Positions 14,367 to 36,199 of a DNA stretch of 64,000 bases are shown piece after piece. Within the stretch, counting starts at the first letter, position 1. The number at the start of each line of letters is the position of its first letter. A program made the position numbers and the translations under genes. Under the pieces are notes generated by a model. It searched no databases and had not been told where the DNA came from. It saw nothing but the letters and a program-made list of their open reading frames with translations. Source of the DNA: a virus; the IMG/VR virus record IMGVR_UViG_3300037422_000262. The stretch is one strand, 5' to 3'.

Positions 14367-16003
14367 TGGCTCAGATCCCCGAATATTTCCGAAATAAATT
14401 AGAATCGTCCCGTACCGGTATAGCGAGTGCGGATCATAGCGGAGCCAGGATCGCGGAATCGGTCAAAGGGCTCGCTGATACTTTTTTCCAGGGCATCGTT
14501 CAATTAGAGGCGGTACAAAAGAAAAATCTCGACGATTCTCGCCGGGCTCAGATCAATGGCGACTATCAGACACGGATGGTCGAAGAGACTAACCGTATCA
14601 GGAACGAGAACCTAAAAACACCTGATAAAGCGACGGATCAGCTTAATAAACGCCGGCAGGAATTACGGGATGAATATTTGTCGGCGATCGATGACGGGGC
14701 GTTAAAGGCTGAGGTCTCTAGGGATTTCGACGTCATGGAAGCGGATGCCCAAGTCAAGGACGCGGTTTGGAAGGTCTCGCAAACTTCTTTGATCGCTCAA
14801 CAGAATCATTTGGATCTTATCTCCCGTAATGCCCAGGCGCTTGCGACTCTTGATTATCAGAATTATCTGGAAAAAGCGTCCATGTTGATGAACAGTAAGG
14901 ACCAGATCGCCCAGTCTTTTGGGGGTATCGAACAAGGGCAGAAAACGGTTGACAAGGGGCTCGAGGCATATACAAAAGCTTTTATTTATGGGCAGATCGA
15001 CCGGGGGAATACGTTCGAGGCCGCGCAGTTACTTCAGAGCGGAAAGTTTGACCCTTTCATTACGGCAGAGAAGAAAAAAGAATTGTTATCCTATACGCAA
15101 ACGGCTTTTGAAGGTCAGCAGAAAAAAGATATTTTTCTAACGGCGGTCCGGGCGTCTTCTGAGATATTTGATACGGCTAAACAAGAGACTTTTGATAACA
15201 CCACGGTCAGTAATTTCGAAGAAAAGATCAGTCAGTTGAGTTTCGATATCCAAAATGCCGTGGAGCAAGGGAAACCGGAAGAAACGATTAATGCGTTGAA
15301 AATTCAGCAAGAAACGTTAACAACGTTGCGGGATATTAAACTTAAAGCGACCGATATCACGGATAAGCAGGAAGATATTGGCATAAAAGGACAGGCGTTA
15401 GCGCGGTTTCAGGCGTTAATTCTTCCTACGAGAGATCCGATAAGCGGTGATAAAGATATTGCGTTGAATAAAAAAGCAACTCTAGATGATGTAATGAAAT
15501 ACCAGCGTTGGCTGACTGAACAGCGGTATGAACAGAAGATATCCCCGGAGACTTATCAGAAGTATATGACGATAACGGAAGCGGCTATCCAGCGGTCGAT
15601 TGTCGGAAATTTGAAAGAATCAGGGGAGGGATTTAAACTTAGCGGCCGGGGGGCTCAGTTAGCTGGGGCTAAAAAGCTTAAAACAACGTTAGCGGACCTC
15701 ATGCGTTCAGTAGACAGGACTATGGGTAAGCAATACGCTGTCGATGTTATTGATTTCTACCTCGATGAATTATACGATCGAGTCGGGGAATCGGAGGATT
15801 TCGGGATGGTCGGTAACGATACCCACAAAGAGTTAATGAATAAAGCGAAAGCAAAATCAGCTCTTAAACGTTTAGGGTACCCGGTTTATTTAACGGTTGG
15901 AGATACTTTAGTCACCTCTTCCGGGGCGTATCTTATAAAAGGACAGGACGCTTCCGGTAATCCGGTCGTTGATATTTCAAATACATTATTTGGGGTGCAA
16001 TAA
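14366..16003 (+). CDS. Internal virion (ejection) protein, gp15-like position (545 aa)
   Basis: Helical protein, TAATG-coupled on both sides, synteny. Confidence 0.6.
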   Translation: MAQIPEYFRNKLESSRTGIASADHSGARIAESVKGLADTFFQGIVQLEAVQKKNLDDSRRAQINGDYQTRMVEETNRIRNENLKTPDKATDQLNKRRQELRDEYLSAIDDGALKAEVSRDFDVMEADAQVKDAVWKVSQTSLIAQQNHLDLISRNAQALATLDYQNYLEKASMLMNSKDQIAQSFGGIEQGQKTVDKGLEAYTKAFIYGQIDRGNTFEAAQLLQSGKFDPFITAEKKKELLSYTQTAFEGQQKKDIFLTAVRASSEIFDTAKQETFDNTTVSNFEEKISQLSFDIQNAVEQGKPEETINALKIQQETLTTLRDIKLKATDITDKQEDIGIKGQALARFQALILPTRDPISGDKDIALNKKATLDDVMKYQRWLTEQRYEQKISPETYQKYMTITEAAIQRSIVGNLKESGEGFKLSGRGAQLAGAKKLKTTLADLMRSVDRTMGKQYAVDVIDFYLDELYDRVGESEDFGMVGNDTHKELMNKAKAKSALKRLGYPVYLTVGDTLVTSSGAYLIKGQDASGNPVVDISNTLFGVQ

Positions 16004-23273: not shown

Positions 23274-23675
23274 ATGCCCGAAGTCGTCGCAGCAAAAACA
23301 ATAGATCTTTTATCATTAGGTGGAGTGACTGAATTAGCCGTCGCCTCTACTACAACCGTTTATGGGCGGTCTTTTCCTTTACCCAGAGAAGCTTCTTTTA
23401 GTTTAGAAATTCAGTTTGACTCCGCGGCCGCCGTGGATGTGAAGCTTGAATTAGAGAACGGGTCTTCCCGCCCCGATACAGAAGGGGCAGTTGACACTGA
23501 TTATGTTGAAGCGGACGGAGCAAGCGATGTCGCGACAGGGATCACAACGGAAACGGTCCATTTCATTCCTGTATCACCGACTGTTTCGCCGTTCGCCCGT
23601 TTCCGTTTTACCGGACAGGGGGCCAATGCCGCCAGCACGAAGATCACACGTTGTAAGCTGCATTATATTCAGTAG
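23274..23675 (+). CDS. Beta-rich hypothetical structural protein (133 aa)
   Basis: SD GGAGG; alternating beta-strand patterns (FSLEIQF, VKLELE, ARFRF). Confidence 0.7.
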   Translation: MPEVVAAKTIDLLSLGGVTELAVASTTTVYGRSFPLPREASFSLEIQFDSAAAVDVKLELENGSSRPDTEGAVDTDYVEADGASDVATGITTETVHFIPVSPTVSPFARFRFTGQGANAASTKITRCKLHYIQ

Positions 23676-26424
23676 TCTTTTTCTCTGGGCACTGAATGTT
23701 CAAGCGCAAGTTCGCGACTCTTATAACGAGGGCGATCTTGAAATGCAGGGCTATTCCGTCGACGGCCACGAATCTCTAGGCCTTTCCTTCGATTGCGACA
23801 ACGATAATTTCGACGAGCTTGTTTGTACCGCTTCCGGCGATCTGACCGTCGGGGATGTTACCTACACCGGGACAGACGGAGCTAACGGCGAGTGTTTAAG
23901 GACCGACGGGCTTGGCGGGACTTTTTTTGACACCTGCGCCAGCGGTTCCGGAGGTTCAGCGGATTCGGTAGCTTACCATAAAATAACCCCTCCTTTAACT
24001 TCCCACGGCATCGGCTTTTCCACATTCACGAATACTTGGACATCTGCCGCTTCAGCCACAGACTTCTTCACCATTTTAGGTACGTCAAACGCTGCCAGCC
24101 TTCTTCATTTGAACGGCGATGCTAACACGACCCGGATGATAATGGATGCTGACGCCGGGACGCCTCGTATATTCTCTTTTAGAACAGATGATGTCGCGCG
24201 TTGGGCTTTTCGTGTTGATGGAGCTGAAACGGGTTCAAATGTCGGAGGAGACCTTCATGTCAGGCGTTATGACGACGCGGGAACCTTGCTTGGCACGCCG
24301 ATGGCTTTTGTCCGCTCTAATGGCAGGGTTGGGATCGGAACAACAGCACCGAACGAACAGCTTGAGATCACTGAGAACTTACGCTTGCCTGCTTCCACAG
24401 CAACGACAGGTATTTATTATGCTGGCGGTAATCGGTTCATCCATAATATCGGGACGGACAGTTTATCTATCGGTACGAATGCCACTCAATTGAATTCCAC
24501 CAGTATCGCAAGGACCACGGTTGGAGGGGCTCAAGCATACAGCACATCGGGAGCCACCGGGGATGATATTACGGCTTTTGGCTATCAAGCCTGTAACGCC
24601 ATCACCTCTGCCGATGAAACGACGTGTATCGGTTCTTTGTCAGGAGCTTCTTCTTTGGGGGCTCAAAATACATTTTTAGGATATAATGCTCGGGCTTCTG
24701 GGACTTCTGAAACCCCAACTATTGCGATAGGGCACAATGCTATATGCCACGGACAATCGATCTGTGTCGGGAAAGACGCGACATCAACCGCGGCTAATCA
24801 AGTTATTATCGGGGGGAGCGACTCAACCGGGCAGATCAATGATGTTTATTTCGGCCGCGGCGTAACGGCAGCGAATCCACCGGCGAATGTTACATTGAAC
24901 CCTACTGGAAGGGTCGGGACTGACGCGACAGGAACACATTTGTATATCGCCGGAGGCAAAGCCACAGGTAACGCTGCCGGAGGGGATATTTCTTTCAGGA
25001 CATCCGACGCCGGAGTTTCCGGTTCAACCTTACAGACGTTATCTGAAAAATGGCAAGTTGATGCCGGAGGAGATTTCCTACCCGGCACAACAAACACGCG
25101 CAGTGTCGGTTCGGCCGGCAACAGGGTTGAATCGCTATTCCTTCACAATAACGGGGGGTATTCAATAGAATGGCCTGACACCGTTGAGCTGGGGGCATCT
25201 GCCGACCATTACCTTAAAGTTGGAGGGGCTTTCGGAGCGAATAGTTCCTCTTTCACATTATGGTTCGACCAATTAAAAACAACGGTGGATGCAGGGAATA
25301 ATATTCTAGGGATTTACCAGGGCGTTGCTAATGCTACTGCCGACGTGACCTCTAACAACCGCGTCGTGATTACGAACGACATTAATGGAGCTTCGCTCGA
25401 AGATTATTTTTATCTTGGGGCTTCCGGGGCAATAGCTCCTTCTCCGGGTATAAACTTTTTACATACAAACAGCTCAGCGCCACCGACCGCGTTAAACATG
25501 GGGTTCATCAATGAATCAGGTGGAGCGCGTTTCATATTCCGTCCAACGTTCGGGGACGTAATGCCAAGGGTAATATCTCCCGGAAGTAGTGGTATTTCCA
25601 TCACATTTGGCAAGGAAACGCAAACGACGCGTGATTCTTTGTTTCAATTCGAATATCCGACGGGGATGATCTTCCGTAACGCCGCGACGTTATCGAGTAT
25701 GGCCCATTTTTCAGGTTCAACCGCGGTAAATCCGGGGACGGGGGCCTCTGATATAATATCAAACGTAACGATCAGCGCTCCGACGTTCGTGACAAACACG
25801 CCTAACACAGCGACAAATTTATATATTCCAGAGGCCCCGACAGGCGGAACGGGTAATTATGCGATGTTTATCGATGGCGGGGTTTTAAGGGCTGATGACG
25901 GCGCTTTATTTAACAATGACCAAGGGGCAACGAATGATTTTATTGTCCGCGGAGATACTTTATCAAATTTATTTTATATAGATTATTCAGCGGATAAGAT
26001 CGGCATCGGCACATCGACACCGACCCACTCTCTTGATATAGTCGGCGGTATTGACGCCGACCATTGGCACGGAAGTGCGACAGATAATAGCGGAATTAAT
26101 TTCAATACGTTCACAAATACTTGGACTTCGACAGATGGCGGTTCCGGCACATTCTTCAGAATAGATACACCTTCAACGGATATTACGGTGACCAAAAACG
26201 GGAATGTTGGGATCGGAACGACCGCTCCGGCGCATCAGTTTGAATTTACGAATACTTGGACCCATTCAACGGCTGGCGTCTTTTTCCCGCGATGTGTTTC
26301 TTCCGATCCCTGCACGATAGCCTTAAAGACGGGACAATTTGCCAACTGTAATACGGGCGAGCCGTGTTACTGCGATAATAATGGAAACGGTATAAGTTCG
26401 GTTGATGGAACAAATTGTTTTTAA
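23626..26424 (+). CDS. Exported tail-fibre/adhesin-like protein with Sec signal peptide (~932 aa)
   Basis: In-frame ATG 23626 with SD-like GGACAGGGGG gives MPPARRSHVVSCIIFSSLFLWALNVQA|QVRD. Three GIGT fibre repeats, three FTNTWT motifs, Cys clusters at both ends. Confidence 0.7.
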   Translation: MPPARRSHVVSCIIFSSLFLWALNVQAQVRDSYNEGDLEMQGYSVDGHESLGLSFDCDNDNFDELVCTASGDLTVGDVTYTGTDGANGECLRTDGLGGTFFDTCASGSGGSADSVAYHKITPPLTSHGIGFSTFTNTWTSAASATDFFTILGTSNAASLLHLNGDANTTRMIMDADAGTPRIFSFRTDDVARWAFRVDGAETGSNVGGDLHVRRYDDAGTLLGTPMAFVRSNGRVGIGTTAPNEQLEITENLRLPASTATTGIYYAGGNRFIHNIGTDSLSIGTNATQLNSTSIARTTVGGAQAYSTSGATGDDITAFGYQACNAITSADETTCIGSLSGASSLGAQNTFLGYNARASGTSETPTIAIGHNAICHGQSICVGKDATSTAANQVIIGGSDSTGQINDVYFGRGVTAANPPANVTLNPTGRVGTDATGTHLYIAGGKATGNAAGGDISFRTSDAGVSGSTLQTLSEKWQVDAGGDFLPGTTNTRSVGSAGNRVESLFLHNNGGYSIEWPDTVELGASADHYLKVGGAFGANSSSFTLWFDQLKTTVDAGNNILGIYQGVANATADVTSNNRVVITNDINGASLEDYFYLGASGAIAPSPGINFLHTNSSAPPTALNMGFINESGGARFIFRPTFGDVMPRVISPGSSGISITFGKETQTTRDSLFQFEYPTGMIFRNAATLSSMAHFSGSTAVNPGTGASDIISNVTISAPTFVTNTPNTATNLYIPEAPTGGTGNYAMFIDGGVLRADDGALFNNDQGATNDFIVRGDTLSNLFYIDYSADKIGIGTSTPTHSLDIVGGIDADHWHGSATDNSGINFNTFTNTWTSTDGGSGTFFRIDTPSTDITVTKNGNVGIGTTAPAHQFEFTNTWTHSTAGVFFPRCVSSDPCTIALKTGQFANCNTGEPCYCDNNGNGISSVDGTNCF

Positions 26425-26434
26425 AGGAGGGATT

Positions 26435-26752
26435 ATGCGTAAAGTCATTATTGGTGTTTTATTTGGGTGTCTTTTAACAACCGCCTGTCATGCCGCGTTG
26501 ACGGCCGGGCAAAAGTCTAAGATGAGGCGTTATTTTCGATATTGGGTCACAGCGGCAGACGTCCAAGACGTCTTGGATACCAGGTTGACCTCGATCTTCA
26601 ATATGCTTTCCGAGGCTCAGCAAGAGGCTGTTTTCACGCAGATGAAAGCTGATATTGTCGATTACCATAATCTCATGGAAACGACACGGCAAGGGCAGAT
26701 CAATGAACTTAATGCCGGAATAACAACGTTGGAATCGGATATAGGGATATAA
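26435..26752 (+). CDS. Exported helical protein with signal peptide (105 aa)
   Basis: SD AAGGAGG before ATG 26435; MRKVIIGVLFGCLLTTACHA|A. Confidence 0.7.
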   Translation: MRKVIIGVLFGCLLTTACHAALTAGQKSKMRRYFRYWVTAADVQDVLDTRLTSIFNMLSEAQQEAVFTQMKADIVDYHNLMETTRQGQINELNAGITTLESDIGI

Positions 26753-26754
26753 TC

Positions 26755-27021
26755 TTGGAAGAATCGCTAAAGCAGTTATGGACTTTCTGTTTGTGGTTTG
26801 CCGGGATCAGCACAACAGCCGCTTTATTCATCGGAGGATGGATGATGAAAATTCATTCGCGTATCGGTATTGGAGAGATGATCGAAAAAGATTTAAAGGG
26901 GATGGCCAAAGACGTTAATGAAATCAAGGTCGCTATGGTCGGAGATTTTGACAAACCCGGATTATTGCGAAAACATTATGAGCTTGAACAGAGAGTCAAG
27001 GATCTTGAAGATAAAACTTAA
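26755..27021 (+). CDS. Single-TM plus coiled-coil membrane protein (TTG start)
   Basis: N-terminal hydrophobic helix followed by heptads. Confidence 0.6.
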   Translation: MEESLKQLWTFCLWFAGISTTAALFIGGWMMKIHSRIGIGEMIEKDLKGMAKDVNEIKVAMVGDFDKPGLLRKHYELEQRVKDLEDKT

Positions 27022-27036
27022 ACTAAGGAGGCTGTT

Positions 27037-27114
27037 ATGGCTTGGGAAATTATCGTTCTTATCGGTATGGGGGTTATGATCGGTGTCGGTATCTACAAAT
27101 TCTATAAAAAGTAA
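27037..27114 (+). CDS. 25-aa single-TM peptide MAWEIIVLIGMGVMIGVGIYKFYKK (not in ORF track)
   Basis: Strong SD AAGGAGG; stop overlaps the next ATG (TAATG). Confidence 0.7.
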   Translation: MAWEIIVLIGMGVMIGVGIYKFYKK

Positions 27115-27380
27115 TGGGACAGCCCACCTCTTACGATTATCCGAATCAAGCTGTTCAGTATCCTATCCAGCAGACGGTTGAAGTTATTAAGCATGAAACA
27201 ACTGACCGCTGGCAGCAAATAATTTTGTTGATAGGAGATACCATTGGGTATCCCTGGTTATTTGCTTTAATTGTTATGGGGGCTTTTGTTGTTGCTGGCG
27301 TTGTATTCAAGAAACATTTAAAGAAAATCTTGGGTGTTTGGGTTGAAGCTTTAAACAACTTTATAAATAATGACAAATGA
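27114..27380 (+). CDS. Membrane protein (88 aa)
   Basis: Central TM WLFALIVMGAFVVAGVVF; coupled start. Confidence 0.6.
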   Translation: MGQPTSYDYPNQAVQYPIQQTVEVIKHETTDRWQQIILLIGDTIGYPWLFALIVMGAFVVAGVVFKKHLKKILGVWVEALNNFINNDK

Positions 27381-27645
27381 CAACGTTTCTAAGCTACCTG
27401 ATTGCCCGTGCTGTCATCGCCCTTGGCTTGACGCTCGCCCTGTTGGAGTTAATCAAGGTTATGTGGAATGGAATGAAGCGCGGAGGCAATGGGACTTCTT
27501 AAGCCTTATCGGACGTTCCCATCTTTACGAGGTATTTGATTGCAATTTTATACGCCAGCAATGTATGATAAAAGGCGAAGAAGATAGGCGACCCAGGAAG
27601 GGTAAGCTCATTTGGGTGGAAGATGAAGATCCAGCTCGAACATGA
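27370..27645 (+). CDS. Hypothetical Cys-containing protein (91 aa)
   Basis: Overlapping start in the operon; CPCCH motif. Confidence 0.5.
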   Translation: MTNDNVSKLPDCPCCHRPWLDARPVGVNQGYVEWNEARRQWDFLSLIGRSHLYEVFDCNFIRQQCMIKGEEDRRPRKGKLIWVEDEDPART

Positions 27646-27796
27646 AACGATCGGGCAGTATGTTCAAAATATCCGTTCCTTCATTGAAGTCGGCGACTTG
27701 GGGAACGCTTTAAAATATACAAAGAAGGCCCAGGAATTGATCGACCGGGCTAAACTCGAAGCGGATTATAAATCAACCCATGAGGTGAATATGTGA
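27623..27796 (+). CDS. Small helical hypothetical protein (57 aa, MKIQLEHETIGQYVQNIRSF...; not in ORF track)
   Basis: Fills the gap between two genes; GGTGGA SD-like sequence; TGATG coupling to the holin-like gene. Confidence 0.55.
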   Translation: MKIQLEHETIGQYVQNIRSFIEVGDLGNALKYTKKAQELIDRAKLEADYKSTHEVNM

Positions 27797-28050
27797 TGGA
27801 TAAAATGACCCCTTTTAAAATATTTAGCGGGAAATTTGTTTTTACCGTAATTACCGCCCTTGTCTTTGCTTATTCTGCGTGGGCAAAAGTCCTTAATGGC
27901 GAGCAGATCTATGGAGTGATAATGCTCGTTGTGGCTTTCTATTTCAACAAAAATCAAGAACAAACCGAACACCTAAACGGAGGGAAAAATGAAGAAACTA
28001 ATCCTGTTAATTATCCTGCTGATCCTGCCGAGCCTGGCGCTGGCAAATGA
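27796..28050 (+). CDS. Holin-like two-TM protein
   Basis: Two short TMs ending in VVAFYF plus a charged tail; lies before the spanin-like pair. Confidence 0.5.
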   Translation: MDKMTPFKIFSGKFVFTVITALVFAYSAWAKVLNGEQIYGVIMLVVAFYFNKNQEQTEHLNGGKNEETNPVNYPADPAEPGAGK

Positions 28051-28453
28051 TCCTGATCTGACGGTCACGATCGGCGAAGAGAAGGAAACGACGGCTGTTG
28101 TGATCCCGGCATCGCCTTTAGAGAAGGTGATCGACAGGATCCCCGAACTTCAAAATGCGGTCATGTGGAATTGGAAAACCAAAGAGATCGATTACGCGGC
28201 CATGTTCAATCTTTTGGAATGGAAAGGTGCTAGTTTCGCGCTCGGCTATACGCCGGCAGAAACGCTCGTGTTCGGGCTTTCCTATAATTTAGGAAGCTTG
28301 GAAAATTTGGGTGTTAAGACCGTGATCCTTAAAGACATCAAACTTGAGCCGACCGTTTTCTACTCCCTTGATCGTATCAATATCCAAGACACATCGACAG
28401 CATCGGAAGGATTTGCCGTCGGTGCTAAATTGCTCGAAGTGAGGTTTTGGTAA
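27989..28453 (+). CDS. Exported protein with probable outer-membrane beta-strands and C-terminal aromatic signature
   Basis: Signal peptide MKKLILLIILLILPSLALA; strands SFALGYT, LVFGLSYNL, LEPTVFYSL, GFAVGAKLLEVRFW-COOH. Confidence 0.55.
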   Translation: MKKLILLIILLILPSLALANDPDLTVTIGEEKETTAVVIPASPLEKVIDRIPELQNAVMWNWKTKEIDYAAMFNLLEWKGASFALGYTPAETLVFGLSYNLGSLENLGVKTVILKDIKLEPTVFYSLDRINIQDTSTASEGFAVGAKLLEVRFW

Positions 28454-28689
28454 TGGTCTGGCAAAAAATGATAGCCGGGGTTATCGGAAGCGGGCTTGGC
28501 AAAGCTGTCGGTAAGCTCGTGGACTATATCCCAGGTAAGACCGAAGCCCGAAGGAACCGTATCGAAAAACTCGAAAAGGAGCAAGATGAGATCAAACGTA
28601 AACCCCCGTCGGTTTCTGGTACTAAGCGTCTTATGGATATTGCCGATGAGCTTGGCAAGCTGTATCAGCACGCCAAAAACTCAGAATAA
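28453..28689 (+). CDS. i-spanin (Rz)-like protein
   Basis: N-terminal amphipathic/hydrophobic segment and coiled coil; overlapped by a lipoprotein gene in another frame. Confidence 0.45.
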   Translation: MVWQKMIAGVIGSGLGKAVGKLVDYIPGKTEARRNRIEKLEKEQDEIKRKPPSVSGTKRLMDIADELGKLYQHAKNSE

Positions 28690-28837
28690 GCAGCCCTATA
28701 TCGAACCTAACCGATCGACGGCGGACTGTAACGTGCATTTGGAATACGGGCAAGCAGGACACTTGCCGATCAATGTTCCCAGGTGCGGGTCGTGGACGTG
28801 TTTTAACAACGATCATTACCGGGAGATAGCGAAGTGA
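28586..28837 (+). CDS. Lipoprotein, o-spanin (Rz1)-like
   Basis: Internal SD AAGGAG before ATG 28586; MRSNVNPRRFLVLSVLWILPMSLAS|C lipobox; Pro/Cys-containing mature part. Confidence 0.6.
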   Translation: MRSNVNPRRFLVLSVLWILPMSLASCISTPKTQNKQPYIEPNRSTADCNVHLEYGQAGHLPINVPRCGSWTCFNNDHYREIAK

Positions 28838-29001
28838 ACTGTCCGAAAGATGATATCCGCATGGTCAAACGGCACAGGATCGATATGTCCATGAAACGTA
28901 TCGCCTTTGCTTTTTATCGCTGCCATAAATGCAACCGGGAGTACGATGAGCAAGGGAACAGGATAAAGATCAAAGGCGATAAATATGAGGTGATAGGATG
29001 A
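28834..29001 (+). CDS. Zn-ribbon-like small protein (55 aa, MNCPKDD...YRCHKCNREY; not in ORF track)
   Basis: GTGA and ATGA overlaps at both ends; CP..D and CxxC motifs. Confidence 0.6.
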   Translation: MNCPKDDIRMVKRHRIDMSMKRIAFAFYRCHKCNREYDEQGNRIKIKGDKYEVIG

Positions 29002-29459
29002 ATGAAAGAAACTTACAGCTTAAAGTTTTTGCGTCTTTCCTTATTGTTTTTATTTTTGCGGCTTTGTATGCGTGGGGCGGGATGGAAATGAAATGGCTTC
29101 GCCGATATCTTGCCCCCGCGGTCTTGTGCGGCGGGTGCTATTGGATAAGCCGTGACTGGCGGTTCTTTGTCTCGCTGCCTCTTAGTTTCCTCTCCCTATC
29201 GCTCGGTTACGGCTCAGATATTGAAATATGGAAGATCATTAAGAGGGGGGCTTTTGGCTTGGCAAATGGAGCTGTCTTCTCGATCAGGAACCTTTGGCAG
29301 AGATATTGGATCCCTGCCGTCTTCCAGATATTACTTCTTCCGGCGGCGTATATCGCCTTCGGGGTTTATAATCCGCTCCCGGCCCGCGTCGAAGAATTCA
29401 CGCTCGGAGTCCTCGTCGCGTTCATTCCCGTTATGAGCGCTTTTATTAAGAAAGACTAA
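28998..29459 (+). CDS. Multi-pass membrane protein (153 aa)
   Basis: Four to five hydrophobic helices; ATGA-coupled start. Confidence 0.7.
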   Translation: MNERNLQLKVFASFLIVFIFAALYAWGGMEMKWLRRYLAPAVLCGGCYWISRDWRFFVSLPLSFLSLSLGYGSDIEIWKIIKRGAFGLANGAVFSIRNLWQRYWIPAVFQILLLPAAYIAFGVYNPLPARVEEFTLGVLVAFIPVMSAFIKKD

Positions 29460-29467
29460 ACTATACT

Positions 29468-30688
29468 ATGAAGTTTTGGCAAAAAGCCCTTCCTAAAACG
29501 GGGCTTCTTTTTATCTCGCTTCTCATTGAAGTCAAACTCTTTCCCTTTATTCCGATCGATTATGTAGATCCGCGTTTAAGCAAAGAGCTTCTGGCCTCTC
29601 TCTTCGCGGCCGGAACGATTCTTTGCGTCTTACGGACAGGGCCATGGGCCCCCATGAAAAACCCCTATCTTCTCGGGCTTCTTTTTTACTGCCTTCTCTC
29701 GCCTTTCCTTCATTCCACCTTGACCTTCCCAACGGTCCCGGATTCGGTCATCGCTTCTTTGTGGGGGTATAAAGCTCTTTGGTATATCATCCTTTACTTT
29801 CTTTTCGGATGGGCTATCGCTTCTATCCGATGGAATCGCCATGATGAGGATCATTTTCGTAATATTTTTATTTTCTTAGGCGCTGTCAGTTCGATCTATG
29901 GTTTCATCCAAGCTTTTTTGCCGGATCAATTCCAAATATTGAATCACGACCCTTTTACGCAGAACACAACAAATAAAGAGATCACCTCTTTTTTTGCCCA
30001 CCCCAATTTCGCGTCCTCATTCATCGTGATAACGCTCCCCTTTATGTACCGGGCGAGGAAGCGGGCCTGGATCGCTTTTTGTTCGGGGGTAGTTTTAATG
30101 ATCGACAGTAAATTCGCTGTCTTAGGGTTGTCCGTCGTCACTTATCTTTATGGGATGTATCTTCTACGTGGCTGGAGATTGTACTGGAATTTAATATGGA
30201 GTTTTCTTCTCGTATGGTTCGTCTCCGCGGCCGCCCTTCACCCTGCCATGCTGGGCTCAAGCGGCCGGTTCGTTGTTTGGGGATATATGTGGCAGGATCT
30301 TCTTAACAGCCCCTTGGCGCCGGGGAAATCTTTCTTGTTGACCGGTTACGGTTTGGGGTCGTTCTCCTATTTATTTATGAATATGCATGGGATATATTTC
30401 GCGGAAGCCCACAGCCTTCTTTTTGAGTTCGTTTTTAATATGGGATTGATAGGGGGTATCTTACTAATATTTTCGATATTTTGGTTGATTTTTAAAATAA
30501 CCCCCTCTATAATCGAAAGTGAAGATACGTGGGTGTGGTATTGCGTGTTCGGAGCGTTAAGTGTCATGTCGTTCGGGTACTTCTTCGAACATATCGAACC
30601 CCATCGTTATATTTGGTGTTTAACCGCCGGGATGCTGTATCAAAAACTTCTTAAAGGAGAGCCACATGAAAAGAGTTCTTGTACTTAG
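29468..30688 (+). CDS. Wzy_C family O-antigen ligase / O-oligosaccharyltransferase-like membrane protein
   Basis: About 11-12 TMs; YGFIQ, ITSFFAHPNFASSF, SSGRFVVW, GYGLGSF and EAHSLLFEFVFNMGLIG motifs with the conserved Arg and His. Confidence 0.8.
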   Translation: MKFWQKALPKTGLLFISLLIEVKLFPFIPIDYVDPRLSKELLASLFAAGTILCVLRTGPWAPMKNPYLLGLLFYCLLSPFLHSTLTFPTVPDSVIASLWGYKALWYIILYFLFGWAIASIRWNRHDEDHFRNIFIFLGAVSSIYGFIQAFLPDQFQILNHDPFTQNTTNKEITSFFAHPNFASSFIVITLPFMYRARKRAWIAFCSGVVLMIDSKFAVLGLSVVTYLYGMYLLRGWRLYWNLIWSFLLVWFVSAAALHPAMLGSSGRFVVWGYMWQDLLNSPLAPGKSFLLTGYGLGSFSYLFMNMHGIYFAEAHSLLFEFVFNMGLIGGILLIFSIFWLIFKITPSIIESEDTWVWYCVFGALSVMSFGYFFEHIEPHRYIWCLTAGMLYQKLLKGEPHEKSSCT

Positions 30689-31049
30689 TTTAGCCGTTCT
30701 CATCCTGATCGCCTCAAATGCTTTCGCCGGGAAATTCGTCGTCGATGGGGATAATCAGGGACAATTCACGGATCTGTTTATTCTAGGCGCCCCGGACTCC
30801 GCTAAATCCGGCAATGACGCGACGATCGATCTGCGTAATCTAGGGAACGAATCAGCCAGCGGGAATACCGGGGTATCGATCTCCCAGGCTGATACGGGTG
30901 AGGCGTTGATCAACGCGGTTTGTACGCCTTCGGGCGGGGATATCACTTGCGGGACATACACAACGACAACGGGTTCTAAATCCGGGTCCATTATGATCGA
31001 TCTGAACGGAACTCCGATGTGGCTTTGGCTTTATAATAAACCTAATTAA
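30666..31049 (+). CDS. Exported short fibre-like protein with signal peptide (127 aa)
   Basis: SD AAGGAG; MKRVLVLSLAVLILIASNAFA|G; C-terminal SQADTGEALIN...KSGSIMIDLNGTPMWLWLY. Stop overlaps the convergent ruvC-like stop. Confidence 0.65.
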   Translation: MKRVLVLSLAVLILIASNAFAGKFVVDGDNQGQFTDLFILGAPDSAKSGNDATIDLRNLGNESASGNTGVSISQADTGEALINAVCTPSGGDITCGTYTTTTGSKSGSIMIDLNGTPMWLWLYNKPN

Positions 31050-31638: not shown

Positions 31639-31765
31639 GGTACATCCTTTTTATTTGTCTAAAAAAACTTTTGAACCGGAATACTTTCCTGTAATTCTCG
31701 TCGAACGTCGCCATATATTCAGCGAACGCTATTTTTCTTAACAGCTTTACGCGTTTTCCTCTCAT
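31574..31765 (-). CDS. Small basic hypothetical protein (63 aa)
   Basis: SD AAAGG; MRGKRVKLLRK start. Confidence 0.5.
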   Translation of the reverse strand: MRGKRVKLLRKIAFAEYMATFDENYRKVFRFKSFFRQIKRMYHASRNRGSQTVREIKTQGLFS

Positions 31766-32051
31766 TTTTATACCTTTCTTGCTCGAAGTGCCAAAGAAAA
31801 ATTAAGCAGCAGAGGGCATGGCTAATATGCGAACGATTGCTCTGCTTATCTTTTTTAGATCCTTTGCGGTAAGCGTTAATGTGTCTGAGTGCCGCGTCAA
31901 GATAACGGCGTTCCCCGTCACCGACAAATAACCAGTTATCTGGACTGTATTTTTTCGCTCCGAAACTAAGGACACGCACAATATCTTCGAGCGGTCCGGG
32001 AGGCAGAAGGCTCCAACGCAGTTTTCGATCATCGTTCTTGACCCCTCTCAT
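31719..32051 (-). CDS. dATP/dGTP diphosphohydrolase N-terminal-domain protein (DUF5664-like)
   Basis: GVKNDDRKLRWSLLP...VLSFGAKKYSPDNW...RYLDAALRH...HISHALCCLIFL. Confidence 0.85.
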   Translation of the reverse strand: MRGVKNDDRKLRWSLLPPGPLEDIVRVLSFGAKKYSPDNWLFVGDGERRYLDAALRHINAYRKGSKKDKQSNRSHISHALCCLIFLWHFEQERYKNERKTRKAVKKNSVR

Positions 32052-35245: not shown

Positions 35246-35656
35246 TTACTTGACGGTTTTTTTAGCATATTGATTGTTTCCTGCGGCGAATTTTCTGGCG
35301 TGTTCGGATTTGGTATAAAGCTCGAGATTAGAAATTCGATTATCGGTCCTATCGTTATTCTTGTGATGAATGCCGTGCTTGGGGGGTATTTTTCCGTTAT
35401 AAAATTCCCAAACGTATCTGTGCATCAATATCCCAGCCCCGTGCGTCATGCCATAATATCCATTATTGCGGAGAGTGAATTTTTTGCCGTCAAAAACCTT
35501 ATACGGCAACTGACTGATTTTCCTTAACTTAAATTTTCTTCTCTTGAAACCGACATGAACCGACTGCCTCGTCATGTTAAACATTCTTCCGACCTGTTCT
35601 AAAGACATTCCGGTCAAATAAGCCTCATACATTTCTTTATACAAATTGTTTTTCAT
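35246..35656 (-). CDS. HNH homing endonuclease (HNH_3-type) with N-terminal HTH, inserted in dcm
   Basis: MHRYVWEFYNGKIPPKHGIHHKNNDRTDNRISNLEL...H; SD GAGGA before ATG 35656. Confidence 0.88.
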   Translation of the reverse strand: MKNNLYKEMYEAYLTGMSLEQVGRMFNMTRQSVHVGFKRRKFKLRKISQLPYKVFDGKKFTLRNNGYYGMTHGAGILMHRYVWEFYNGKIPPKHGIHHKNNDRTDNRISNLELYTKSEHARKFAAGNNQYAKKTVK

Positions 35657-36199
35657 AATCCTCATCACAGCTAAACACTTGACATTTGTCAAGCAAATCC
35701 AATCTAACGCCGACAATGAAGACCCGCTCTCGATTCTGAGGAACGCCGAAGTTCTTCGAGTTTAAGACCTCAAAGTCGATTGCATAGCCGCACTCACGGA
35801 AGCCTTCACATATTCTCTCAAACGAGTTTCCTTTATCGTGGGAAAGTATGCCTTTAACATTTTCAAACAGAAAGAACTTTGGTTGTTTGTCACGCAAAAT
35901 GCGAAAACATTCATACCACAAAGTCCCCCTGGAATCCTCAAACCCCTTTCTTTTTCCAGCAATACTCCAGGTTTGACAGGGAGTTCCTCCGCAGAGGAAA
36001 CCGAAGTCAGGAATGTCTGCTGCGTTGATTTTTGTGGCATCGCCGAATCCTTTGTGTTGTGGGAAGTGTTTTTTGTAGATTTGGATTGCATAACGATCGA
36101 TCTCGGAATATCCGACGCACTCTCCCCGGTCTCCGATTGCCTTTTCAAACCCCCAATACCGGAGAATAACGATAAATATTTAATTTTGAATTGCGGCAT
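35637..36199 (-). pseudogene. dcm: C5-cytosine methyltransferase, N-terminal fragment (motifs I-VIII); needs a -1 frameshift at 36150-36154
   Basis: Frame 0 gives MPQFKIKYLSLFSGIGG; the -1 frame continues FEKAIG...SEID...GGTPCQTWS...FLFENVKG...PQNRERVFIVG, open to the stop at 35637. Confidence 0.8.

Follow-up and report, generated by a model that had tools for sequence, protein, structure and literature searches.

Why would a tailed phage encode a glycan transferase of the WaaL/PglL type, and why should genes for exported proteins accompany it? Both questions are raised by positions 23626-31049 of IMG/VR virus record IMGVR_UViG_3300037422_000262, a viral sequence from a freshwater metagenome, of which we analyzed a stretch of 64,000 nucleotides (hereafter the window). 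A first-pass annotation had read these 7.4 kb as one periplasmic export and glycosylation module, built around a Wzy_C-family enzyme and four signal-peptide proteins. Our analysis points instead to a composite locus. One part of it is a two-gene unit, a predicted transferase of 406 amino acids (aa) followed by an exported Ser/Thr-rich partner, which recurs across a lineage of related phages.

The 406-aa protein itself has no match in Pfam, PHROGs or NCBIfam, and Wzy_C (PF04932) is absent even at E=10. Because Pfam misses Wzy_C in this protein, its family assignment rests on its relatives, on a profile of the family and on its fold. An exhaustive search found 281 representative clusters with lengths of 370-450 aa, and 72 aligned members provided the basis for conservation and Pfam counts. 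Wzy_C is matched by 65 of these 72 homologues at E<0.01 (best 1.9e-17), and the family profile aligns with WaaL (PDB 7TPG) at E 1e-6, placing GRF on 'GvRLKIW' and AH on 'HAHND'.

The AlphaFold model, with a predicted local distance difference test score (pLDDT) of 93, consists of ~12 helices in a GT-C_B fold with a long periplasmic loop. It superimposes on WaaL 7TPJ with a Z of 23.5 (root-mean-square deviation of 4.2 Å, 342 residues), and SEDS proteins come next at Z 11-12. Foldseek likewise returns 7TPG as the top PDB match. Among reviewed proteins, the fold search ranks the two protein O-oligosaccharyltransferases (O-OTases) of Acinetobacter baylyi first (6e-8 and 5e-7), followed by ExoQ, putative polysaccharide ligases, Wzy polymerases, TuaE and WaaL, with the WaaL entries at 8e-5 to 3e-3; an Atlas search agrees.

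The same annotation had pointed to a conserved Arg and His. Both motifs, SSGRFVVW (R267) and EAHSLL (H315), are present, and each residue is at least 90% conserved in the 72 members. In the profile alignment to 7TPG, R267 falls on the Arg that contacts the phosphate of undecaprenyl diphosphate (Und-PP; R265 in WaaL) and H315 on the acceptor-activating His. Across the clan, the Arg binds the diphosphate, and the acceptor-activating residue is His in ligases and Asp or Glu in polymerases (PMC10920833). Because His is conserved at this site, we favor ligase or oligosaccharyltransferase (OTase) chemistry over that of a Wzy-type polymerase. NCBIfam models run on the 72 members do not separate ligase, OTase and polymerase. 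The counterpart of WaaL R191 is less clear: the aligned residue, K215, is variable, and 17 residues upstream of it there is a conserved basic position, R197/K198. Judging from sequence and model, we conclude that the gene at 29468 encodes a real WaaL/PglL-type transferase with a predicted intact active site.

This enzyme belongs to a new phage-specific branch of the known superfamily. A tblastn search with three family members against 50,697 deposited phage genomes returned no homologue, and the block has no DNA match in GenBank phages. Our literature search found no description of a phage ligase, a phage OTase or an exported phage fiber. The system around the enzyme is not one that we can file under any described system known to us.

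Single-protein scans of IMG/VR gave no match for the enzyme or for 23274-23675. Searches of Logan, IMG/VR and metagenome collections yielded DNA for 14 distinct related loci (loci are here numbered with the prefix L), in which enzyme identity ranges from 67% to 24%; an alignment of 14 rows was the seed for profile searches of IMG/VR and metagenomes. An exported, Ser/Thr-rich small protein adjoins the enzyme in 14 of the 14. It lies downstream in 11, where it has a signal peptide and a length of 112-133 aa, two of these cases being masked by gene-call starts. The other three (L013, L019 and L020) encode, immediately upstream of the enzyme, an exported protein of 170-196 aa that is likewise Ser/Thr-rich but not homologous, and when the downstream and upstream families are compared by profile, their signal peptides alone align. 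In L013 and L019, the pair is flanked by capsid genes on one side and fiber genes on the other; L020, at 2.6 kb, is too short for placement. Gene order is kept down to 24-30% enzyme identity.

By these comparisons, 29468-31049 is a conserved two-gene unit, the predicted enzyme followed by its exported partner. Searching related phages for recurrence, as the first-pass annotation had advised, shows that both the pair and the signal peptides of the fiber-like proteins are conserved across the lineage. That annotation had also named two findings that would speak against its reading, a lack of co-conservation and a recent host origin of the ligase; with pairing in every locus and a conserved neighborhood across a phage lineage, both objections fail.

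A further feature of the partners is a short loop bounded by two Cys (for example, CTPSGGDITC or CTAGALNSC), found in 7 of the 11 aligned downstream partners. Loops of a similar type recur in the exported fiber-like proteins, that of L010, for example, containing three copies of C[ST][IV][ST]S[AS]GVM[ST]C, and no ORF (open reading frame) of these loci other than the partners and the exported fiber-like proteins has one. The pattern was defined after inspecting these same proteins, so we treat it as a lead only.

The fiber-like protein of the window (932 aa) is also rich in Ser and Thr (21% together) and in Gly (13%). Its mature form contains 14 Cys, which make up 7 close pairs; the gp17-like fiber, the portal and a 1,594-aa protein of the window contain none. 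Closely paired Cys recur in the large exported fiber-like proteins of L010 and L012, whereas gp17-like fibers have 0-2 Cys. Such pairs fit oxidative folding outside the cytoplasm, and from its sequence the fiber-like protein is very likely disulfide-bonded.

The public gene call for this protein (P0152) starts at 23743 instead of 23626 and has no signal peptide. We accept the start at 23626 because its counterparts carry signal peptides: these are clear at the N termini of the equivalent-position proteins of L003, L009/L010 and L012 and of the large fiber-like proteins of L013 and L019, and P0171, a homologue of the fiber segment on a JGI contig, has one at its start. In L010, the shared 'GYSV' segment comes directly after the signal peptide. 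Signal-peptide proteins of 99-127 aa occupy the position of the 26435 gene in L004, L010 and L012; no sequence homology is detectable among these positional analogues and the 26435 protein. Elsewhere in enzyme-bearing relatives, the exported proteins include Laminin_G_3, Mtd-domain and beta-helix-like types. L019 encodes, at 14508-15287, a protein with the second domain of Mtd (Bordetella-phage tropism determinant; E 2e-7) and a classical signal peptide at its start, another receptor-binding-type and apparently exported protein.

We judged signal peptides by inspection and by a crude rule that requires a basic n-region, a hydrophobic h-region of 10-15 residues and a small-x-small site. Classical n-h-c N termini with such a site and a Shine-Dalgarno sequence occur at four genes of the block, with predicted signal peptides MRKVIIGVLFGCLLTTACHA at 26435 (cleavage before A), MKKLILLIILLILPSLALA at 27989 (before N), MKRVLVLSLAVLILIASNAFA at 30666 (before G) and MPPARRSHVVSCIIFSSLFLWALNVQA at 23626 (before Q). 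In a crude scan of every start in six frames over one genome length, signal-peptide-like N termini of real genes were confined to 23626-31049. These n-h-c features, the LASC lipobox of the 28586 product and the recurrence of signal peptides in orthologues confirm the four Sec signal peptides and one lipoprotein that had been noted earlier. The count of 'about six' membrane proteins is roughly matched by predictions for 26755, 27114, 27793, 28998 (3-4 transmembrane [TM] segments) and 29468 (polytopic), with 28447 a weak sixth.

What, then, does the enzyme modify? We tentatively favor the idea that it glycosylates phage-encoded exported proteins, and rank this first on four grounds: the enzyme is paired with an exported protein, its gene is placed among particle genes, integrases are lacking and exported fibers co-occur with it. 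The closest GenBank relative, MW202485, has neither the enzyme nor a signal peptide on its fiber. No integrase is found among window ORFs of at least 120 aa or in three complete relatives (G001-G003, 94-100% complete), in keeping with the earlier description of a phage with no visible integrase. By analogy with WaaL, the enzyme would take a ready-made glycan from Und-PP at the periplasmic face; R267 would bind the diphosphate and H315 would activate the hydroxyl of the acceptor. Late in infection, host lipid-linked glycan would pass to the small partner and perhaps to the fiber-like protein, both of which have short Ser/Thr-rich, Cys-bounded loops. Proteins matured in the periplasm could then meet particles in the interval between holin action on the inner membrane and rupture of the outer one.

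In this mechanism, it is the identity of the acceptor that we infer. Adjacent genes for an OTase and its acceptor are familiar from pilA-tfpO and comP-pglS. The phage pair resembles ComP-PglS of Acinetobacter baylyi and PilA-TfpO of Pseudomonas in its catalytic core and in the adjacency of enzyme and small exported protein. Moreover, the PglS sequon is a Ser-rich stretch between two Cys of ComP (PMC12800693), and the phage partner has a Ser/Thr-rich segment that is likewise bounded by two Cys. Adjacency and composition are what the loci show, the partner being a candidate acceptor, and its loop recalls the ComP sequon, again as a lead only. Unlike ComP and PilA, the partner is no pilin and has a predicted cleaved Sec signal with no prepilin motif; unlike the bacterial pairs, the genes are phage-encoded and the enzyme precedes its partner in most loci.

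Phage particles are thought to be built wholly in the cytoplasm, and the known phage genes that modify sugars either change the host surface (Gtr, Oac and Wzy) or encode soluble cytoplasmic glycosyltransferases. Mycobacteriophage virion proteins, for instance, are glycosylated by soluble cytoplasmic enzymes of this kind using nucleotide sugars. The candidate role proposed here is similar in that a phage would decorate its own particle proteins; it differs in that the enzyme would use a periplasmic lipid-linked glycan and that the candidate acceptors are Sec-exported.

Several observations weigh against glycosylation of exported proteins. The enzyme ends straight after its last helix and aligns with only ~9-422 of the 548-568 aa of PglL/PglS, so that the additional periplasmic domain found at the C terminus of PglL, PglS and TfpO is missing and its size is more like that of WaaL or Wzy. 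None of the 72 family members matches PglL_A, Wzy_C_2 or any other PglL-specific Pfam model. The Cys-loop motif, as noted, is post hoc, and the structure model of the partner is poor (pLDDT 52). A complex prediction for the enzyme with the mature partner gave no verdict and weighs neither way. To our knowledge, there is no precedent for periplasmic fibers joining particles built in the cytoplasm. Finally, on the JGI contig that encodes P0171, two small genes separate the enzyme gene from an integrase and a repressor ~0.8 kb away, and a position near the integrase is classic for a conversion gene.

This last arrangement fits with remodeling of the host surface, in which the enzyme would ligate or re-route Und-PP-linked host glycan to an acceptor in the envelope, either lipid A-core or another one. 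The receptor would be altered, and infected cells and debris would stop adsorbing phage (exclusion or anti-readsorption). The partner would then have an accessory role, for instance in setting specificity or in inhibiting the host enzyme, and the exported fibers would be unrelated. We rank this explanation second, as a serious possibility that we nevertheless think somewhat less probable, because of the WaaL-like size of the enzyme and the many precedents for phage enzymes acting on surface glycans. Its architecture is core-only, and WaaL is its sole high-scoring solved match. The likeness to WaaL of Cupriavidus metallidurans (7TPG/7TPJ; CAZy GT121) extends to the 12-helix fold, the length and the aligned Arg and His. 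The two proteins are, however, 11-12% identical, the equivalent of Arg-191 is not clearly conserved, and the phage gene belongs to a late operon and is always paired with one for an exported protein. Such a strict association with an exported, Ser/Thr-rich protein is not known for WaaL, and we know of no phage-encoded WaaL-type ligase.

Among phages, the Gtr systems are known modifiers of surface glycans, and the conversion genes of epsilon15 sit after the fiber genes, as the enzyme gene does here. Phage-encoded Wzy provides a well-known precedent within the same superfamily (PMC9241936). Conversion polymerases of this kind (D3 Wzy-beta with Iap, epsilon15 gp22 with gp21 and the Acinetobacter baumannii prophage Wzy of the same report) share with the enzyme a location after tail-fiber genes and close to genes for small membrane or exported proteins. 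They differ in several respects: the conserved His in place of Asp/Glu speaks against a Wzy-type polymerase, the partner is a 105-aa exported beta-rich protein and not a small hydrophobic inhibitor, no short hydrophobic peptide gene adjoins the enzyme, and the three family members searched have no sequence match in any deposited phage. The missing integrase in the window and G001-G003 also argues against remodeling, as does the position of the gene in L013 and L019, in the middle of the particle-building operon.

If protein glycosylation is correct, it would open a wider proposition: that a widespread uncultivated tailed-phage lineage matures some of its receptor-binding parts outside the cytoplasm, its fiber-like proteins being Sec-exported, disulfide-bonded, O-glycosylated with lipid-linked glycan of the host by a WaaL/PglL-type enzyme and joined to particles after holin action, to give virions with host-type sugars. 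We regard this full scenario as speculative and rather doubtful. A phage-specific ligase/O-OTase branch, an exported partner and disulfide-rich exported fibers would together imply either a previously unrecognized periplasmic step in the making of phage proteins or a new form of envelope remodeling by integrase-less phages. Either outcome bears on host recognition, exclusion and freshwater phage ecology, and the family is a possible source of compact new glycan transferases for bioconjugation.

The genes between the fiber-like protein and the enzyme call for a separate explanation. By its gene order of holin, endolysin slot and spanin-like pair, 27793-28837 looks like a lysis cassette. The 154-aa exported protein in the endolysin slot has no Pfam or PHROG match; its homologue at L008:15503-16021 (E 1e-14) keeps the gene order on a different type of phage contig. 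For the 154-aa protein, an outer-membrane barrel and an unrecognized exported lysin are both conceivable. The genes at 28447 and 28586 have an overlapped Rz/Rz1-type geometry with a lipobox; the anchor segment is weakly hydrophobic, and neither product has a family match. An analogous overlapped pair is seen in L013. The run of a TM protein, an exported protein, a small protein and a 4-TM protein is also present in L008, and the gene content of the interval from fiber to enzyme differs among relatives.

Directly before the enzyme gene, the 153-aa membrane protein belongs to a phage family with homologues at L013:16170-16634 (E 2e-16) and L008:16543-17016 (E 6e-9), and a 145-aa protein sharing its motifs lies upstream of the enzyme at L012:9076-9513. 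This family of ~150-aa proteins with 3-4 TM segments matches no known family or fold, and an Atlas search was uninformative. Its linkage to the enzyme is not strict: the L013 homologue is 7 kb from the enzyme gene, and L008 has no enzyme in the 22 kb covered.

The scan of window ORFs by Pfam and PHROGs found no muralytic domain or endolysin, and Amidase_2, Phage_lysozyme, SLT and Peptidase_M15_3 have zero matches in G001-G003. Because no muralytic domain is recognizable in these genomes, we considered that the enzyme might replace the missing endolysin by draining lipid-linked precursors of the wall or envelope, for example onto the abundant exported partner or water, so that wall synthesis would starve. 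Such a role would suit the fold, which is common to the lipid II polymerases FtsW and RodA, and the proximity of the enzyme gene to lysis-like genes. It would also suit MW202485, in which the enzyme is absent and the gene right after the fiber encodes an amidase-like protein (annotated 'endodeoxyribonuclease I'; we read the amidase from the sequence). However, a missing Pfam match may reflect divergence, since internal virion proteins also go without matches, and the 154-aa exported protein could itself act as lysin. A long distance separates the enzyme gene from the lysis genes in L013 and L019, and the exported fibers would be left unexplained. We therefore consider precursor drain unlikely.

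Last, we rejected as highly improbable a recent host-derived passenger gene with no phage role and with chance hydrophobic N termini in place of signal peptides: the query does lack a Pfam match and named relatives, but it belongs to a conserved family of 281 clusters in which every locus represented by DNA or by a gene table either resembles a phage or is too short for judgement, gene order is retained at 24-30% identity, orthologues repeat the signal peptides, and no such N termini occur elsewhere in the genome.

Given the lysis-like middle and its variability among relatives, we dropped the idea of one 7.4-kb glycosylation module. The block is indeed co-oriented, as first described: every ORF of 23274-31049 is on the + strand, with intergenic gaps of -104 to +92 nt. 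A scan for promoters and terminators shows no subdivision, because the counts were not above those of shuffled sequence. The best explanation is a composite of the predicted enzyme and partner unit (29468-31049), an exported fiber-like part (23626-26752) and the putative lysis cassette.

Table. Genes of the block from the exported fiber-like protein to the end of the + strand arm, in window coordinates.
Feature	Position	Strand	Basis and remarks
Fiber-like exported protein, 932 aa	23626..26424	+	Signal peptide; repeated 'VGIGTT.P' fiber motifs
Exported protein, 105 aa	26435..26752	+	Directly 3' of fiber-like gene; signal peptide
Four small ORFs: 26755 and 27114 (one TM each), 27370 (Cys-rich), 27623	26755..27796	+	Not conserved in relatives
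Holin-like membrane protein, 85 aa	27793..28050	+	phrog_34399, E 2e-6; TM segment; 5' of exported 154-aa gene, as in L008
Exported beta-rich protein, 154 aa	27989..28453	+	C terminus ...RFW; endolysin slot
Candidate i-spanin, charged, coiled-coil-like, 80 aa	28447..28689	+	N-terminal segment weakly hydrophobic
Lipoprotein, 83 aa	28586..28837	+	Lipobox LASC; gene begins within 28447-28689 and extends beyond it (overlapped o-spanin arrangement)
Cys-pair (zinc-ribbon-like) protein, 55 aa	28834..29001	+	67% identical in L001; present in L008
Membrane protein, 153 aa, 3-4 TM	28998..29459	+	Conserved phage family; motifs WGG..K..RR and SLGYG(G)
Predicted WaaL/PglL-type (Wzy_C superfamily) Und-PP-glycan transferase, 406 aa	29468..30688	+	R267 and H315; fold; Wzy_C matches of relatives
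Exported Ser/Thr-rich partner, 127 aa	30666..31049	+	Signal peptide; Cys-bounded loop CTPSGGDITC; 23-nt overlap with enzyme gene

The window as a whole contains one genome more than once. Because the same ORFs return after 41,676 bases, we read it as a single 41.7-kb podovirus genome, circular or terminally redundant, that is covered ~1.5 times. The two copies (1-22324 and 41677-64000) mismatch at 2 of 22,324 positions, 43 and 22322 of copy one. The + strand arm encodes the large terminase, portal, major capsid protein, tail tube B, the 1,594-aa protein and a fiber with a T7 gp17-like N terminus, and the - strand arm encodes a Holliday-junction resolvase, DNA polymerase A, exonuclease, helicase and primase. 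Among deposited genomes, the closest are those of uncultured 'Manatee Spring' podoviruses and HTVC010P-type pelagiphages, whose tail tube B is ~33% identical. The window sequence was found in no RNA runs.

At the junction of the two arms, the + strand arm ends in a gene that converges with the resolvase gene on the - strand; the two overlap by 4 nt (31046-31049), and no terminator-like hairpin lies between them. Farther along the - strand, 31719-32051 encodes a protein of 110 aa in which the N-terminal domain of dATP/dGTP diphosphohydrolases is recognized (PF18909, E 7e-29). Nucleotide-pool enzymes of this type occur in phages whose bases are modified; a PurZ-like gene was not seen. The - strand ORF at 34586-35218 matches the model for C5 DNA methylases at its C-terminal end only, and an HNH endonuclease ORF (35246-35716, - strand) lies directly upstream of it. 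Because of this partial match and the adjacent HNH ORF, the C5 methylase looks split by a homing-type insert.

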